This document shows positions 31,099-60,068 of a DNA stretch of 64,000 nt, in pieces. Position 1 is the first letter of the stretch; each line of letters begins with the position of its first letter. The translations under genes and the position numbers were made by a program. This stretch comes from Escherichia phage ph0011, in sequence record OP557969.1, one strand, 5' to 3'. A model generated the notes under the pieces. It worked only from the letters and a program-made list of their open reading frames with translations, did no database searches and was not told where the DNA came from.

Positions 31099-33791
<2,693 letters not shown>

Positions 33792-51700: not shown

Positions 51701-52837
51701 ATGGCAGAGAAAGAAATCAATCCAAAAAAATCGTCAACAGTCACTAAAAACACCAAACGTTCTTCCAAAACTGCGACGAAGGGTCACACAATTGATGCAA
51801 GTGATATTTTCAACCAAACAACAAAGTCACTCCCAGTTCTAAAAGATGTAAAGGGTAATACCATGTCACTAACAGTTCAAAACATCAACACTGTTGGTAC
51901 AACTGCTGGTGCGGCGGTTGGTCGTTTGGCTGATGAAATTATGTCTAAGGTTAACGTAACCGATGACAATACCGAGTTTGGTAAATCAATCACTACAATT
52001 CTCACATTGACCCGTGCGGTTGATATTGATAGTCTTCAGGAAGATAAATCAATTGTTGGTCGCATTAAGAAATTCTTTGTTAATGCCCAACAGAAAGTTG
52101 GCGATCAATACAAAAATAGTAAAGAACAAATTGATGAAATTATGAAAACTCTACAAACTGGCATCAATCGCCAACATGGAGAGTGTGAGTGGCTTGATAA
52201 AGCATATAATGAAAACAAAGAATATTTGTTCGAATTACGTGATACATTAGTTGGTTTAGAAGAAGTAACTAAAGCACAAGATGCAGTACTGGCAGAAATG
52301 CAAGCAAACAAAGATGTGGACTCTTTTGCTATTCAAGAACAAAAGATGATTTGTGAAGCACTTTCTAAGCAAGAAGACAAGATTCGCCGACTTATCATGA
52401 TGTGTGAACTGAGTGGTCCACGATTGATGAGTATGAAAAAAGTAAACTTAAACACTGTTTCTAAGTTTGAAGATTTGAAATCAGTAGTAATTCCCGCATG
52501 GAAATCGCAATTGGCTGAACAGCTAATCTCTGAGCGTCAACGTAAGGATAATGAATTGGGAAATCTAATTGACAATGAAACAAATCGTTTATTAGAGACT
52601 AACTCTAAGATGGTTGCAGCTAATATGCTGGATGCTGCAAAGGCAAACAATCGTGGTATTGTGGATATTAAAACCTTGCGTAATGTACATAAAACAATGA
52701 TTGACAGCATTGAAGCTGTTATTGAAGAAGAGAAAAAAGGTAAAATGGAACGTGAACGTGCGAAACAAGAAATCGCACAACTTTCACACGAACTCGAAGA
52801 CACACTTCGTGAAATTGCAGAAAAAGCTAACAAGTAA
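51701..52837 (+). CDS. Hypothetical coiled-coil protein (378 aa)
   Basis: ORF with GAGGAA RBS; helical and charged throughout. Confidence 0.55.
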   Translation: MAEKEINPKKSSTVTKNTKRSSKTATKGHTIDASDIFNQTTKSLPVLKDVKGNTMSLTVQNINTVGTTAGAAVGRLADEIMSKVNVTDDNTEFGKSITTILTLTRAVDIDSLQEDKSIVGRIKKFFVNAQQKVGDQYKNSKEQIDEIMKTLQTGINRQHGECEWLDKAYNENKEYLFELRDTLVGLEEVTKAQDAVLAEMQANKDVDSFAIQEQKMICEALSKQEDKIRRLIMMCELSGPRLMSMKKVNLNTVSKFEDLKSVVIPAWKSQLAEQLISERQRKDNELGNLIDNETNRLLETNSKMVAANMLDAAKANNRGIVDIKTLRNVHKTMIDSIEAVIEEEKKGKMERERAKQEIAQLSHELEDTLREIAEKANK

Positions 52838-53615: not shown

Positions 53616-54710
53616 ATGAATTTTATTATTCTGTTGATTCCTTCACTTATCGTTGTATTTGTTATGAAATACATGTATGATAAGCATATCAGTACTAAAG
53701 AACTGTTGATTCATATTGGTTGTTGTATAGTTGGGGCTGCTCTTGTGCTTGGTATCTCATATGCAATCAACTACAGCCAATTGTACGATGTAGAGATTCT
53801 AAATGGGCAGGTAACATCCAAATATAATCACAAGGAGTTTTGTACACAATCAAGCTCATGTAAGCATTACACGTGGCACGAGAAATGCAGAACTCGTTAT
53901 GATAGTAAGGGGAAATCCCATCGTGAATGTGAGTCCTATAAGGTATTTGATTATTCATACGAAGTTGACTGGTATGTAAAAAGTACTGTAGGGAAGTTTG
54001 AGATTGAGCGAGTAAACCGTCAGGGTACAATGACCCCTCCACGCTGGCAACAGGTTAACATTGGGGATTATGCTGCCGCAGAAAGTTCTTATATTAACTA
54101 TCTGTTCGCTGATAAAAACTCATTGTTTAGTCCTGATGAATTACATGAAATGTATGATGAGAAATATCTTAGTTCTTTACCAGAATATCCAAGTATTAAT
54201 GATTATTACATAACACATCATGTTATTAACAAAACAAATTATAATGTATATGGATATGAAGAATATTTACGTAACGTTTTGAAAACTATGGGTTCACGTA
54301 AAGAAGTCAATATCTTAGTTATTGTATACAATTATAAAGACAGTGATTTTGTTGATGCTACCTTAGCAAAGTGGCGTGGTGGTAAGAAGAATGATGTTAT
54401 TATGTTCTTTGGTATTGATGGTGATGGTAATATTATTAAATTTAACAGCACATCATTTGCCCAGGGAATGAAAAATGAAGGATTACATGCAAAGATGCGT
54501 ATGGACGCATTAAATGAAAAATTAACGATTGACTTATTAGCAATAGAAGTGCATAATATTGATACACAGTTCGTGAGACTCTCTAATAAAGAGTTTGAGT
54601 ACTTGTCTATTAAAATGGAACCACGCAAAGATGTTCTCATCGGTGCTTCTATTTTATTACTAATTATTTCTATTTTTATTGGCCTTTATATGAGGGATAA
54701 CGAATTATGA
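53616..54710 (+). CDS. Hypothetical membrane protein (N- and C-terminal hydrophobic segments)
   Basis: Hydrophobic N-terminus IILLIPSLIVVFV and C-terminus LIGASILLLIISIFIGLY. Confidence 0.55.
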   Translation: MNFIILLIPSLIVVFVMKYMYDKHISTKELLIHIGCCIVGAALVLGISYAINYSQLYDVEILNGQVTSKYNHKEFCTQSSSCKHYTWHEKCRTRYDSKGKSHRECESYKVFDYSYEVDWYVKSTVGKFEIERVNRQGTMTPPRWQQVNIGDYAAAESSYINYLFADKNSLFSPDELHEMYDEKYLSSLPEYPSINDYYITHHVINKTNYNVYGYEEYLRNVLKTMGSRKEVNILVIVYNYKDSDFVDATLAKWRGGKKNDVIMFFGIDGDGNIIKFNSTSFAQGMKNEGLHAKMRMDALNEKLTIDLLAIEVHNIDTQFVRLSNKEFEYLSIKMEPRKDVLIGASILLLIISIFIGLYMRDNEL

Positions 54711-55261
54711 ATGGTAAAGTTTTTGCATTAATTGGTATTATTGTTGTATTTGGTCTTATGGTAATTGGGTCTATTAGCATGTATGTAGGAACATATGATC
54801 GTGCGGTGGAATTTGAAGGTAATATTCAAAAGTATTACGATGCTTCAGAAAGTCAATTAAGTACTTATACCCTTACAATCCAAGAAAAGGTTCAAGTATC
54901 AGATAAGTATAAAGATGCATTGAAAGAAACAATTGAATCGTATTTCAAAGGACGTGAAGGTGTTGACCAGAAATTTGTAATGTCACAGATTCAACAGCAG
55001 GTTCCAAATCTTGATCCTAAAATTTACCAGGAGCTTATGGTAACAATTGAATCAGGACGTACAAAGTTCAACAATCTTCAAAAAATGAAAATCGACCAAT
55101 GTACAGAATATTCCAAATTCCGCAAAGGATTCTGGAATTCCAAAATTCTTGATGTTAACACGTTTCCAAGTGAAAATATTGCACATCTTTGCACGGTAGT
55201 ATCAGATACCCGCACAAAGAAAGCAATGGATACTGGTATTCAAGAAGTAATTAAACTATAA
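54707..55261 (+). CDS. Membrane-anchored protein, possibly LemA-like
   Basis: N-terminal TM helix then helical soluble domain with FPSEN; resemblance to the LemA family is tentative. Confidence 0.35.
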   Translation: MNGKVFALIGIIVVFGLMVIGSISMYVGTYDRAVEFEGNIQKYYDASESQLSTYTLTIQEKVQVSDKYKDALKETIESYFKGREGVDQKFVMSQIQQQVPNLDPKIYQELMVTIESGRTKFNNLQKMKIDQCTEYSKFRKGFWNSKILDVNTFPSENIAHLCTVVSDTRTKKAMDTGIQEVIKL

Positions 55262-55310
55262 TCTAAATCTGGGAGTACAAAACGTACTCCCATTTTCTAT
55301 AGGGTTTATT

Positions 55311-56450: not shown

Positions 56451-56801
56451 ATGCTAATATATTTAAGTGTGCTTGTTTTTTCGTTACTGTTGTCACTGAT
56501 TATTTTAAAAATTATTGCTATTGTTCGAAGTAAGATTGATTGTTCTGAAACTGGTTCAGTTATTGACTTGGTTCTTGATTATCCAAAGCGATGTGGTGTT
56601 ATTGTGTTAATTGTTCTCCTTATGAATACATACATCGTCAGAGAACATTTATATAATATGTATGATTGTAGTGTTCGTTCATTTTCACAAGGTGTGGACA
56701 CGGACTATAGTTGGTACTATAAGAAATGTCGATTTAAAAACCAACACGGTATTTGGGTTGATTTTGATAAATTACGTGGAACCCCTACTGGAGAAGAATA
56801 A
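56451..56801 (+). CDS. Hypothetical membrane protein (116 aa)
   Basis: Two hydrophobic segments. Confidence 0.45.
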   Translation: MLIYLSVLVFSLLLSLIILKIIAIVRSKIDCSETGSVIDLVLDYPKRCGVIVLIVLLMNTYIVREHLYNMYDCSVRSFSQGVDTDYSWYYKKCRFKNQHGIWVDFDKLRGTPTGEE

Positions 56802-56803
56802 TT

Positions 56804-57295
56804 ATGTTTGTCTTCCCTGAAGAGTCATTTAATTTCATTGATCCTACAGATGATGGGTATAGACATATTAACATTTATAGTAAAGCCAGAACTAAGCTAG
56901 GTAGAGATCTATCTAATTTTTCTTCGTATAGCTTCACACTGGAACCATATGGGTGGTTCCCATCAGTTGAAACGTTTTACTTTTGGTTTTTAACTGGTCA
57001 AAAACATGATGATCTTAGAAAAGTATCTGGTGCAGCAGCAAAGGCTGCTGCTAACAAATATATGCATGATAGAATTATAATGACTGATGATTGTATCTCT
57101 ATTATTCAAGATGCAATTTGTGCTAAGATAATTCAAAACCCAGAGTTATCTGAAAGATTAAGAAAAAGCAAATTACCATTTTACCATTACTATGTTTATG
57201 GTGGGAAGGTTGTTGATGTATCTGATGAGCATGACTGGTTTGTTAAAACATTCGAAGATATAAGAATTGTTTTAAAGGAGAATCACAATGACTAA
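56804..57295 (+). CDS. Hypothetical protein, possibly NADAR/YbiA-like
   Basis: LSNFSSYSFTLEPYGWFPSVETFYF loosely resembles the NADAR core; weak. Confidence 0.3.
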   Translation: MFVFPEESFNFIDPTDDGYRHINIYSKARTKLGRDLSNFSSYSFTLEPYGWFPSVETFYFWFLTGQKHDDLRKVSGAAAKAAANKYMHDRIIMTDDCISIIQDAICAKIIQNPELSERLRKSKLPFYHYYVYGGKVVDVSDEHDWFVKTFEDIRIVLKENHND

Positions 57296-57566
57296 ATGTT
57301 GGGTATGTTGTAAGCATTTCGATGAAGAATATGATATTTCTTTGGATGTATACCATCAGCAATACATGATATCATCGGGAAAATATAAACTAGATACCTT
57401 CCCAACTCCTAAGTATATGGGGATTTGTCCATTGTGTAATGGGAATGGTGTATTAGACATTGTTATTGAATTCACAAATACACAAACTACTGATTGTGTT
57501 GCCGCATATATAAGAGATAATCTTGATTTTTTCACTAGGAGATTATATGAACGAGAAAATATTTAA
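57288..57566 (+). CDS. Hypothetical Cys-rich small protein (92 aa)
   Basis: CWVCCKHF ... CPLCNGNG. Confidence 0.45.
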   Translation: MTKCWVCCKHFDEEYDISLDVYHQQYMISSGKYKLDTFPTPKYMGICPLCNGNGVLDIVIEFTNTQTTDCVAAYIRDNLDFFTRRLYERENI

Positions 57567-57783
57567 TTCATATAATATGGAAGATTTACTAATACCATCC
57601 GAGAACAGTACTGTTAAGATGCAAATGTATTGGTTAGTAAAAGATGGTAAAGTATTTCAACACAAAGTTACAAAAGTATGGCAATGTAACAAAAACAAGT
57701 CAATAGTTGATACACTAGCAACTGCATTTCCAGGGGTGGAGGTTGTATTTTTACCAGTTGCTTATATTAAGGAAATAAAATGA
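57547..57783 (+). CDS. Hypothetical protein
   Basis: ATG at 57547 preceded by GGAG. Confidence 0.45.
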   Translation: MNEKIFNSYNMEDLLIPSENSTVKMQMYWLVKDGKVFQHKVTKVWQCNKNKSIVDTLATAFPGVEVVFLPVAYIKEIK

Positions 57784-57947
57784 AAAAAACATGGACAATA
57801 TTCGTAATACCTATTATAATGTTGTTATTGGTAATCACGGTTCCACAAGTATACGTTGTTGCTTTGAATGTGGTGGAAATTATTCTTCTTGTAATTCATT
57901 GCCTTGTGTGTTATTACTACGTAAAATGGGATGATAAAAAAATATGA
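57780..57947 (+). CDS. Small membrane protein (55 aa) absent from the ORF track
   Basis: ATGA overlaps at both ends link it to the neighbours; hydrophobic core IFVIPIIMLLLVITVPQVYVVALNVVEIILLVI. Confidence 0.4.
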   Translation: MKKTWTIFVIPIIMLLLVITVPQVYVVALNVVEIILLVIHCLVCYYYVKWDDKKI

Positions 57948-58366
57948 AGTACTATCGAATTCGAGTTGGTGTAAGCTCAGGTTTTAGTAATTGGGTATAT
58001 TATGATTTGCCTGATAGCTATACCGTAGAAGATGTAATTAACTTATATTATGAAGAAGAGACATGGGTACTCAGTACTGAAACACATAGTGTAGTGTGTG
58101 AAGAGCTATGTGCCGAAGATTACAAGCACTGTGTCCAAGCAATGAAGTATTACAGTAAAGAAGTGAAGATGTTATCTGAAAACATTTTTCCGGTAAAAGA
58201 ATGGGCAATTTTACTTGCAAATCCTAACAAACCTGTTAGAATTGGTTATCCAAACAATCATATGGTTTATCGAATGAATAACAAACGTGAGCTAAGTTAT
58301 CAGTATGATTACAGTGCTTCTAAGTTTGGAGTTCTACCACAATTTAAAAAGGCTTATCCAGTATGA
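57944..58366 (+). CDS. Hypothetical protein (140 aa)
   Basis: ORF. Confidence 0.5.
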   Translation: MKYYRIRVGVSSGFSNWVYYDLPDSYTVEDVINLYYEEETWVLSTETHSVVCEELCAEDYKHCVQAMKYYSKEVKMLSENIFPVKEWAILLANPNKPVRIGYPNNHMVYRMNNKRELSYQYDYSASKFGVLPQFKKAYPV

Positions 58367-58698
58367 GCAATGACAGCAAAGAATTTATAGTACGTTGTAG
58401 TTGTGGTGATAATACTGAACATTGTATTCACATTGCACAATATGACTTGACACAAGAAGATGGAGATGGTAAACTTGGTCAATGTTTGGTGAGTATGCGT
58501 TTGAATCCTTTCTTAAAATGGCACAAACGTATATTGGTTGGGTTGAAGTATATTTTCGGTGTAAACGATTTTCAATACAAAGAAGCAATGATTGATGTTG
58601 ACATTCTGAAAGAAGTTGTGTTACAATTAGAAGACACCCGTCCCGATGAGGTAAAGAAAGAAGAAAGAGATAAACGTAGTGATGTGAAGGTTTTATGA
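58363..58698 (+). CDS. Hypothetical protein (111 aa)
   Basis: ORF. Confidence 0.5.
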   Translation: MSNDSKEFIVRCSCGDNTEHCIHIAQYDLTQEDGDGKLGQCLVSMRLNPFLKWHKRILVGLKYIFGVNDFQYKEAMIDVDILKEVVLQLEDTRPDEVKKEERDKRSDVKVL

Positions 58699-58895: not shown

Positions 58896-59324
58896 ATGAA
58901 TATCGAACAAATCATCCGTAATCATTCTTTCTTCGCCCCAGAGACTGGTCGTGTAATTGAGAATGTCAAAATCGAAGAACTTATGGTGAATGTTAAATAC
59001 AAAGAACCAAATGATGAGATTAGTAGCACTTTTTGTGCACTTCGTGCACCATTCCGCAATGAAAAAGCAAAAAAACCAGCATATGTTCTTGCAATTGCTT
59101 TAGGATGTGTTGTTAAACTTGCAGTTGATGAAAATATTATTAATATCAAAGTCGCCCCTACCAATGACGAAGAAAACATTGATTTGAACTTTGATGGTAA
59201 TCTCGACGAAGATGTATTTTTTCAACAGTCACTTGTTTATGACTTCCGTACCGTGACATATTCACATATTAACTTCGTCAATGAAATGGTTGATATTGTA
59301 GCCAAATATGAAGAATCTCTATAA
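58896..59324 (+). CDS. Member of FQxSL paralog family
   Basis: C-terminal DEDVFFQQSLVYDFRTVTYSHINFV shared with the genes at 60538-62643. Confidence 0.55.
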   Translation: MNIEQIIRNHSFFAPETGRVIENVKIEELMVNVKYKEPNDEISSTFCALRAPFRNEKAKKPAYVLAIALGCVVKLAVDENIINIKVAPTNDEENIDLNFDGNLDEDVFFQQSLVYDFRTVTYSHINFVNEMVDIVAKYEESL

Positions 59325-59334
59325 TTAAATCATA

Positions 59335-59360
59335 AAAGCCTCCATGTTGGAGGCTTTTCT
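59335..59360 (+). terminator. Rho-independent terminator
   Basis: agcctcca-tgt-tggaggct followed by tttct. Confidence 0.6.
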
Positions 59361-59381
59361 CACATAAGGAAATGAAGAAAT

Positions 59382-59933
59382 ATGATTGAACAAATTAATA
59401 TTCTCACACAACAAATTACCGACTTTCTCTCAGATAAAGAAGGTTTCAAAACTGAAGTGAAAATGCACGGCGTTAGTCTTGATGTAATTTCACCAGATGG
59501 AAATGTTACAAATTATGATATGTACGAATTGTTTCTTTACACTTTAGCAGTACGTAAACTAGGAAGTGACATTGAACTAAACATTAACACTGATAGTGAT
59601 GGAAATAAAATTTTTGCAATCAATACAAGTGCTAAGTATGATGTTAGTGCAGAAATTAAAAAAATTAACGATAGCTTTGTTGGTTTCACCCATGATTCAA
59701 TTCAAGGTGTTTTTGTAGGTAAACAAACTTCATCAAGTCAATGTCCATTTTGTATTATGACTTTATATAAAAATGGTGATTGGATGCGACAAGACTTGGT
59801 ATATGCTGAAATGTTGTATGCATTTACACATGGTCTAGAAATTGAATTAGATGATAGTGCTTTTTGCTTTAAGAAAATCCGAAAACTCACAAATGATATT
59901 CAAAAGCAACTTAAAGAATTAAATGATAAATAA
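59382..59933 (+). CDS. Hypothetical protein (183 aa)
   Basis: ORF with AAGGAA RBS. Confidence 0.5.
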   Translation: MIEQINILTQQITDFLSDKEGFKTEVKMHGVSLDVISPDGNVTNYDMYELFLYTLAVRKLGSDIELNINTDSDGNKIFAINTSAKYDVSAEIKKINDSFVGFTHDSIQGVFVGKQTSSSQCPFCIMTLYKNGDWMRQDLVYAEMLYAFTHGLEIELDDSAFCFKKIRKLTNDIQKQLKELNDK

Positions 59934-60042: not shown

Positions 60043-60068
60043 ACTGCCCCGTATATCGGGGCATTTTA
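60043..60068 (+). terminator. Rho-independent terminator
   Basis: tgccccg-tatat-cggggca followed by tttta. Confidence 0.55.

Follow-up and report, generated by a model that had tools for sequence, protein, structure and literature searches.

The window analyzed here is a 64,000-nt stretch of the genome of Escherichia phage ph0011 (OP557969.1), a member of genus Asteriusvirus in the 121Q/PBECO4 group, and around the ORF under study its DNA is ~85% identical to that of Asteriusvirus jumbo coliphages, among them 121Q, PBECO4 and BF17. A 55-codon ORF running from ATG to TGA at 57780–57947 on the plus strand encodes MKKTWTIFVIPIIMLLLVITVPQVYVVALNVVEIILLVIHCLVCYYYVKWDDKKI and is a homolog of 121Q gp76. 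It fills the sole gap between two conserved genes on the same strand, a 78-aa gene upstream at 57547–57783 (phrog_13902, 2.8e-29; 121Q gp75 family) and a gene for a 140-aa soluble protein downstream at 57944–58366 (phrog_15599, 9e-60; 121Q gp77 family). The coordinates and peptide reported in a first-pass annotation of this DNA were borne out, as were the ATGA overlaps it described at both ends of the ORF, at 57780–57783 with the 78-aa gene and at 57944–57947 with the 140-aa gene. A Shine-Dalgarno sequence (AAGGA, 57769–57773, +) is located 6 nt 5' of the ATG, within the final codons of the upstream gene, and an AAGGA, AAAGGA or GAGGG motif is kept at equal distance in 121Q, Turkey3, A4, UE-S1, Turkey5 and L017. 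The ORF belongs to a same-strand unit of 12 genes bracketed by terminator-like hairpins at 55270–55292 (no strand assigned) and 60045–60063 (+), both identified by consensus scan as pattern matches only. The gene two positions downstream of the small ORF is annotated as encoding a virion structural protein of 111 aa (phrog_12660; RefSeq annotation). A sigma-70-like match was found inside the ORF at 57792–57820; because such matches were barely enriched in the region (64 found versus 50 ± 7 expected), this one was treated as chance and an internal promoter at this position was set aside.

The ORF had been described as unannotated, which proved incorrect. NCBI lists an identical protein under the title 'hypothetical protein vBEcoMphAPEC6_02150 [Escherichia phage ph0011]', and the supplementary table of the ph0011 paper (PMC9692438) lists a CDS at 281780..281947 (+), equal to the window coordinate plus 224000, with neighboring CDSs at 281547..281783 and 281944..282366 at the same offset. 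The ORF is therefore already annotated, as a hypothetical protein (locus vB_EcoM_phAPEC6_02150). Its homolog is also annotated in 121Q (gp76, 53 aa), BF17, Turkey3 and A4. At least seven public records mis-handle the gene: no CDS is called in PBECO4 (KC295538), Turkey5, JNE01, CMSTMSU and UB, and the start is set too late in the UE-S1 record (40 aa) and too early in the phAPEC6 record (99 aa). A literature search found no paper discussing the gene and no Asteriusvirus transcriptome or membrane proteome, and gp135-137 are not mentioned in the text on the phAPEC6 virion proteome.

An open and hydrophobic frame is by itself weak evidence for a gene in DNA of this composition (window GC 33.6%). 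On the largely non-coding strand ~6% of 55-codon windows are open, compared to 1% expected from base composition, and spurious overlapping ORFs in the window reach GRAVY values of 1.2–2.0, compared to 1.35 for the small ORF. On such grounds the ORF could be a frame left open by chance, in an AT-rich spacer that serves only to provide ribosome-binding sites and spacing for its neighbors: frames rich in T often appear as hydrophobic ORFs when the DNA is AT-rich, phage RaK2 is without the segment, and several annotation pipelines skipped the ORF. This explanation is effectively refuted by comparison with related phages. By tblastn the frame was found in 36 of 36 related phage records (E = 1e-11 to 1e-22). 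All records read directly had it intact apart from CMSTMSU, which is marked UNVERIFIED and has single-base differences in A-runs at either end of the ORF that resemble sequencing errors. The intact frames include those of the most divergent lineages, A4, UE-S1, Turkey5 and JNE01 (56–59% identity). Over 49 collinear codons the frame has stayed open in every lineage despite synonymous divergence near saturation (pS 0.42–0.80), at a pN of 0.06–0.36, and pairwise dN/dS was 0.10–0.31 in well-diverged pairs. Differences were commonest at codon position 3 and fewest at position 2 (18, 9 and 29 at positions 1, 2 and 3 between the window and Turkey5), and the alternative +1 frame, though open in the window, does not remain open in relatives. 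Also at odds with a chance frame are 17 residues invariant across seven variants and a homolog in a different genus-level context, P0013, which is described below. Conservation across relatives, named in the first-pass annotation as a check on its claim, was thus found, the gene being present in all 36 of these Asteriusvirus records.

The amino-acid divergence of the small ORF matches that of the neighboring gene, with 68% versus 73% identity to 121Q and 56% versus 57% identity to Turkey5/JNE01. No Rfam family was matched at gathering score, the two sub-threshold Phe_leader matches near 59307–59387 lying outside the ORF, and repeats that might give the ORF another reading were not found. Since it fills the only gap between conserved genes, is open in every relative and is under purifying selection as judged from these codon comparisons, the small ORF is a genuine protein-coding gene.

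The junctions of this gene with its neighbors differ in how well they are conserved. An ATGA overlap is not special in this operon, as four consecutive junctions use it; the remaining junctions in the 12-gene unit are 2–6-nt gaps or 8–20-nt overlaps, with one 57-nt gap before the last gene. The ORF had been described as linked by its overlaps to both neighbors, a reading that is supported by the geometry, with the upstream junction under looser constraint. Every Asteriusvirus lineage examined has a tight downstream junction: ATGA in the window, 121Q, Turkey3, BF17 and UE-S1, TAATG in Turkey5 and JNE01, an overlap of 14 nt in A4 and a gap of 1 nt in L017. The upstream junction, in contrast, varies between ATGA, gaps of 1–2 nt and, in the BF17 group, a 73-nt spacer. 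In that group the ribosome-binding site is present twice, together with the first 24 codons, as the result of a 77-nt tandem duplication whose first copy is out of frame by one A. Because its own ribosome-binding site is conserved, the gene needs no upstream overlap. At the downstream end, the charged C-terminal tail KWDDKKI and stop codon (57924–57947, +) are encoded by purine-rich codons in which the next gene also has its ribosome-binding region and ATG. Comparable arrangements are seen in 121Q, where AAA GGT GAT AAA GAA holds AGGTGA, and in Turkey5, where AAG AAG AGG GCT holds AGAGG, which is also present in L017; the tail is therefore under dual constraint. Judged from this junction geometry, translational coupling to the downstream gene is plausible. 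In the distant homolog L016 neither junction overlaps, and the small ORF and the 140-aa gene are 37 nt apart.

The product is almost entirely hydrophobic, as had been claimed (GRAVY 1.35). By hydropathy it contains two hydrophobic segments, at approximately residues 4–21 and 26–48, separated by V-P-Q-x. The first (57789–57842, +), with hydropathy windows of up to 3.26, is predicted as transmembrane helix 1 and carries the invariant residues P11, I13, M14 and L17; a short uncharged turn of the form P22-Q23-x-x follows (57843–57854, +), and the second segment (57855–57923, +) is predicted as transmembrane helix 2. AlphaFold2, run with an eight-sequence family alignment, modeled a helical hairpin with helix at residues 2–20, a break at 21–22 and helix at 23–54 (mean pLDDT 86.8, core > 90), so that hydropathy and structure prediction, the check proposed in the first-pass annotation, agree on two transmembrane segments. 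The hairpin architecture is predicted with high confidence. Product length in Asteriusvirus is 52–58 residues, the tails varying in length. K2 is invariant at the N-terminus, where K3 is nearly so; all variants except one (P0008, PQEH) have an uncharged turn; and the C-terminal tail is charged and usually net basic (KWDDKKI, KGDKE, KKRA), the tail of A4 being acidic. These charges fit the positive-inside rule, by which rule alone both termini are inferred to be cytoplasmic and the P-Q turn periplasmic. The earlier suggestion of a small membrane protein thus agrees with the hydropathy, the model and the distribution of charges.

The same N-terminal sequence could be read as a cleavable signal peptide, consisting of MKK, an 18-residue hydrophobic core and a proline, which would leave a mature single-pass peptide of ~33 residues with its N-terminus outside and its C-terminus inside. 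In Turkey5, A-I-G precedes V-P-Q and would be a possible signal peptidase site. Most variants, however, are without small residues at −3 and −1 (V-I-T, A-L-F, A-F-F), and four residues of helix 1 are invariant (P11, I13, M14 and L17), whereas a signal-peptide core is usually expected to be less conserved than this. AlphaFold2 furthermore packs helix 1 against helix 2 with pLDDT > 90. Cleavage of helix 1 is for these reasons considered highly improbable, and the two-helix hairpin is retained as the predicted structure.

Conservation within the hairpin is concentrated on one side of helix 2. The residues invariant across the seven phage-genome variants (alignment A1) are M1, K2, P11, I13, M14, L17, P22, L29, N30, E33, I35, L36, V38, H40, C41, C44 and Y47. 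Among metagenomic variants, N30 is replaced by Q in P0008, H40 by N in P0004 and C41 by I in P0012, while P22, E33 and C44 are invariant throughout Asteriusvirus. On a helical wheel, the conserved positions of helix 2 (V26, L29, N30, E33, L36, L37, H40, C41, C44 and Y47) occupy an arc from 260 to 40 degrees, and the variable positions 24, 28, 31, 32, 42 and 46 lie opposite, at 120–240 degrees. Such a pattern would be expected if helix 2 packed through a specific interface and turned its other side to the lipid. E33 is replaced by N in P0013 and probably by M in gp375 of phage Munch. As polar residues are lost in distant homologs, no single residue is therefore mechanistically essential across the wider group, and the loss of E33 in these deeper homologs is evidence that a catalytic or ion-binding residue is not strictly conserved across that group.

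A conserved polar face of this kind could instead line a pore. The protein would then be a membrane-permeabilizing oligomer, such as a mini class II holin, a pinholin, an antiholin or a viroporin-like channel, in which the polar face of helix 2 dissipates the membrane potential and so times lysis or shuts down the host. Class II holins have two transmembrane helices with both the N- and C-termini inside (PMC9636201), and this is the layout predicted here, with the orientation drawn from the distribution of charges. The likeness to class II holins and pinholins (e.g., S21 68 of lambdoid phage 21) extends to two helices, small size, a charged C-terminus and a polar helix face, which in the small ORF protein is the single conserved one, with membrane-embedded Glu and His; in addition, two weak structural neighbors in BFVD are named holin (E-values 4–6). 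Known class II holins are ~65–95 aa, whereas the small ORF protein, at 52–58 aa with a tail of 5–10 residues, is shorter in both respects. It has no sequence relationship to them, searches of PHROGs (E ≤ 10), Pfam (E ≤ 1) and NCBIfam having yielded no holin family, and it is not part of a lysis cassette, as no endolysin gene is adjacent. The closely related phage fEgEco12 encodes a candidate T4 T-like holin (Gp406c, 220 aa) and a lysozyme (Gp275) elsewhere in its genome, and the gene is missing from sister genera that must lyse their hosts too (RaK2, GAP32, CBB and EJP2). Most variants have no dual-start motif, and E33, as noted, is lost in P0013 and Munch gp375. A pore-forming role is accordingly regarded as unlikely, and the gene is, on these comparisons of sequence, gene context and distribution, probably not a lysis holin.

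Database searches indicate that the gene family is tiny. By full-length similarity (profile E = 1e-17 to 1e-33) the small ORF protein is a member of a family comprising 121Q gp76 (AIT13973.1), BF17 QXN76416, Turkey3 XMR01340, A4_105 and ph0011 02150, which are 56–100% identical. The members have in common their position between gp75 and gp77 homologs, the hairpin and residues P11, P22, N30, E33, H40 and C44, and differ in tail length; all are annotated as hypothetical protein only, and the family has no studied member. Searches of PHROGs (at E ≤ 0.01, and then at E ≤ 10 with eight members), Pfam and NCBIfam gave no family membership, and the only sub-threshold family matches were to RseC_MucC, DUF6007 and phrog_162. 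The best Pfam match was RseC/MucC (PF04246), in which residues 1–54 aligned to profile positions 64–117 of 130, the two-helix hairpin part of the profile. This match scored 19.4 bits, below the 24.4 threshold, and seven of the eight family members matched, all sub-threshold; the N-terminal positions 1–63 of the profile have no counterpart in the 55-aa protein. Composition and architecture probably account for the match. A fold search of the hairpin model against BFVD found its own family only, and a PDB fold search returned nothing.

When 5.8 billion proteins were searched through a word index, the 11 clusters recovered were all of the Asteriusvirus type. An exhaustive profile search covering 1.84 billion cluster representatives gave three matches, these being the 121Q type, P0012 (51 aa, on a short Asteriusvirus-like contig) and P0013 (58 aa, E = 1e-4). 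Against a profile built only from Asteriusvirus members, P0013 scored 38 bits, and none of 1000 composition-matched shuffles scored as high; its turn is 7 residues longer than that of the Asteriusvirus members. The 21.8-kb contig that carries P0013 has a GAP32-like gene order of PnuC, a 92-aa gene, a terminator hairpin, P0013 and a homolog of the 140-aa gene (32% identity, E = 4e-24). At P0013 the upstream neighbor thus differs from that in Asteriusvirus and the downstream partner is unchanged, which makes this locus the best single example of linkage to the 140-aa gene. In IMG/VR, a search with a narrow alignment found the 121Q type only, and a broad alignment found 13 loci, seven of them new.

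The constant partner of the small ORF is the 140-aa gene. Every small-ORF homolog lies directly upstream of a gene of the 140-aa family, and in Asteriusvirus the homologs lie between the gp75-family (phrog_13902) and gp77-family (phrog_15599) genes. The 140-aa family itself is present in 69 phage records across the Rak2-like genera, and an AlphaFold2 model of the protein, an alpha/beta fold, had no informative fold match. The small ORF is missing from RaK2, GAP32, CBB, EJP2 and four IMG/VR contigs, and the gene is therefore accessory. In RaK2, ORF180 (the homolog of the 78-aa gene) lies 2 nt from the 140-aa gene homolog with no small ORF between them, and in CBB a hydrophilic 67-aa gene occupies the small-ORF position. 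The 140-aa gene is independent of the small ORF, because it was found without it in ~8 of ~19 lineages examined.

Hydrophobic ORFs of similar size occur at the same position in other Rak2-like phages. These are 63–72 aa in Munch (gp375), fENko-Kae01 (ENKO_379) and L030; 78–79 aa as annotated in Eneladusvirus (Serratia BF BF_0362, pEa_SNUABM_49 and Yersinia fHe-Yen9-04 g363); and 67–71 aa in XbC2 (XbC2_362), Kaldavass (CDS0282), L032 and L036. They have GRAVY values of 0.7–1.3 and two hydrophobic stretches, and often form ATGA or ATAATG-type junctions with the 140-aa family gene. Only weak similarity links the Munch type to the window family (pairwise E = 2e-4 versus P0013; shuffle p ~0.001–0.005 in both directions), with which L030 has the VPQ turn in common. 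When profiles were compared to composition-matched shuffles, the Eneladusvirus and XbC2 types had no significant similarity to the window family, and their similarity to each other was marginal. Small hydrophobic genes are rare in the window, amounting to one of 15 ORFs of ≤ 90 aa and three of 88 ORFs overall, so the recurrence of such ORFs at one position is unlikely to be coincidence. The recurring ORFs are either homologs that have diverged beyond detection or the product of a position that favors a gene of this kind. The adjacency of the small ORF and the 140-aa gene may itself have no functional meaning and result from the two having been inherited together as part of one block.

An accessory and patchily distributed gene, lying within a block of small non-structural genes, is typical of phage-competition genes, and the protein could be a superinfection-exclusion or immunity protein like Imm of phage T4. 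As such it would be an early small inner-membrane protein that blocks entry of the DNA of competing phages. T4 Imm is a small inner-membrane protein with two hydrophobic segments, encoded by an accessory gene, and the small ORF protein is of the same general build, with two hydrophobic helices. It is shorter than Imm, however, and has no detectable similarity to Imm or to any PHROG family; no Pfam or PHROG match names immunity or exclusion. The 111-aa structural-protein gene two positions downstream is ill-suited to a purely early operon, and the strict linkage to the 140-aa gene would be left unexplained. An Imm-like function is likewise considered an unlikely account of this gene. The resemblance to both class II holins and T4 Imm is limited to size and predicted topology. 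A small phage-encoded membrane hairpin is of a familiar kind, and current understanding is not overturned by it.

The reading that we favor, held with somewhat better than even confidence, is that the gene encodes an accessory inner-membrane hairpin of Asteriusvirus that associates through the conserved face of helix 2, is co-produced with the 140-aa protein and is not a lysis holin. The small ORF would be transcribed as part of the tightly packed 12-gene unit and translated from its own AAGGA site; the ribosome-binding region and start codon of the next gene, lying in the last codons of the small ORF, would lead to co-production with the gp77-family 140-aa protein. The product would insert in the host inner membrane as a helical hairpin, with its N-terminus (MKK) and charged C-terminal tail in the cytoplasm and its four-residue P-Q turn in the periplasm. 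The face of helix 2 bearing N30, E33, H40 and C44 would then associate helix-to-helix within the membrane, its partner being other copies of the hairpin, a protein of the host inner membrane or a complex that includes the downstream protein, and the likely outcome would be a change in how the envelope or membrane of the host functions during infection. With only 3 and 7 residues, the cytoplasmic tails offer little surface for a soluble partner, a point that weighs against this explanation.

A broader proposal takes the recurring pairs together: the hairpin and the 140-aa protein would form a two-gene module found across the Rak2-like jumbo phages, in which the membrane subunit has diverged or been replaced (types A, B and C). 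The function of such a module would be an undescribed one, for example a counter-defense or exclusion device located in the membrane, or a proton-conducting hairpin acting via N30, E33 and H40. This proposal is speculative and rather unlikely.

Jumbo phages are a setting in which most genes are still without known function, and small membrane proteins are those most often missed or given the wrong start. In the annotation of ph0011, 447 of 575 CDSs are hypothetical (PMC9692438). The analysis provides a corrected gene model for genus Asteriusvirus and a compact target of ~170 nt for toxicity, exclusion or counter-defense screens. The dissimilar small hydrophobic genes found at one position also offer a test case for distinguishing diverged homologs from independent arrivals. 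Two aspects of the locus are of more interest: a polar face is conserved inside the membrane, and across Rak2-like jumbo phages a small hydrophobic ORF is repeatedly paired with a 140-aa gene. As a further observation on the locus, the neighborhood of the ORF is rich in NAD and ADP-ribose genes, which include NADAR, ADP-ribosylglycohydrolase and PnuC.

In other Rak2-like genera, small hydrophobic ORFs adjoin the gene of the 140-aa family directly on its 5' side, the position held in the window by the 55-aa predicted two-helix membrane protein (57780-57947). Their similarity to the window ORF is little or undetectable, and they could be either its diverged homologues or repeated replacements. 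Among the loci of related phages, ORFs of this kind were located at 1013-1204 of L011, 965-1204 of L014, 565-801 of L020, 593-796 of L022, 595-798 of L023, 959-1204 of L030, 995-1204 of L032 and 983-1198 of L036.

In phage BF17, a tandem duplication of 77 nt (2486-2562 of its locus) has copied the small ORF's first 24 codons together with the ribosome-binding site, and the same 77-nt duplication is found in fEgEco12 (protein P0002). The first copy in this group is out of frame, being one A short in a run of A, and the UniRef model of the duplicated ORF is a 77-aa product in which both copies are fused. In the CMSTMSU record, which is marked UNVERIFIED, single-base differences in A-runs at either end of the small ORF (698-865 of its locus) break the start codon and cause the stop codon to be read through; these look like homopolymer sequencing errors and not true pseudogenisation.

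A near-consensus sigma-70-like pair (TGGACA, 17 nt, TATAAT; 11/12 matches) is located inside the small ORF at 57792-57820. It is probably due to chance, as the region contains hardly more matches of this type than expected (64 vs 50 +/- 7).

The clearly membrane-like small ORFs of the window were limited to three, these being the 55-aa ORF, an ORF of 128 aa that contains several hydrophobic segments (31099-31485; GRAVY 0.99) and a 116-aa ORF (56451-56801; phrog_8041) three genes upstream of the 55-aa ORF in the same operon. The 116-aa product has a strongly hydrophobic N-terminal segment plus a second hydrophobic stretch and is probably another membrane protein of this operon. Just upstream of the operon lie genes for two further proteins, one of the TelA family (51701-52837; 132 bits in Pfam) and one that is LemA-like (54707-55261; 'LEMA protein' annotation in 121Q gp69), both of membrane-stress type and both unusual as phage cargo.

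Two positions downstream of the small ORF, a 111-aa gene (58363-58698) matches phrog_12660, 'virion structural protein', and its homologues in several relatives are likewise annotated, so that this operon may comprise more than early or non-structural genes alone.

Across genera, genes linked to NAD and ADP-ribose recur in the neighbourhood of the 140-aa gene: a NADAR-like gene in Asteriusvirus (window 56804-57295), an ADP-ribosylglycohydrolase in Munch, EJP2 and fENko-Kae01 (L011, L015, L019), and a PnuC nicotinamide riboside transporter in GAP32-, BF-, Yen9-04- and XbC2-like phages (L012-L014, L016, L020-L023). Besides PnuC, L016 carries an AAA_28 gene.
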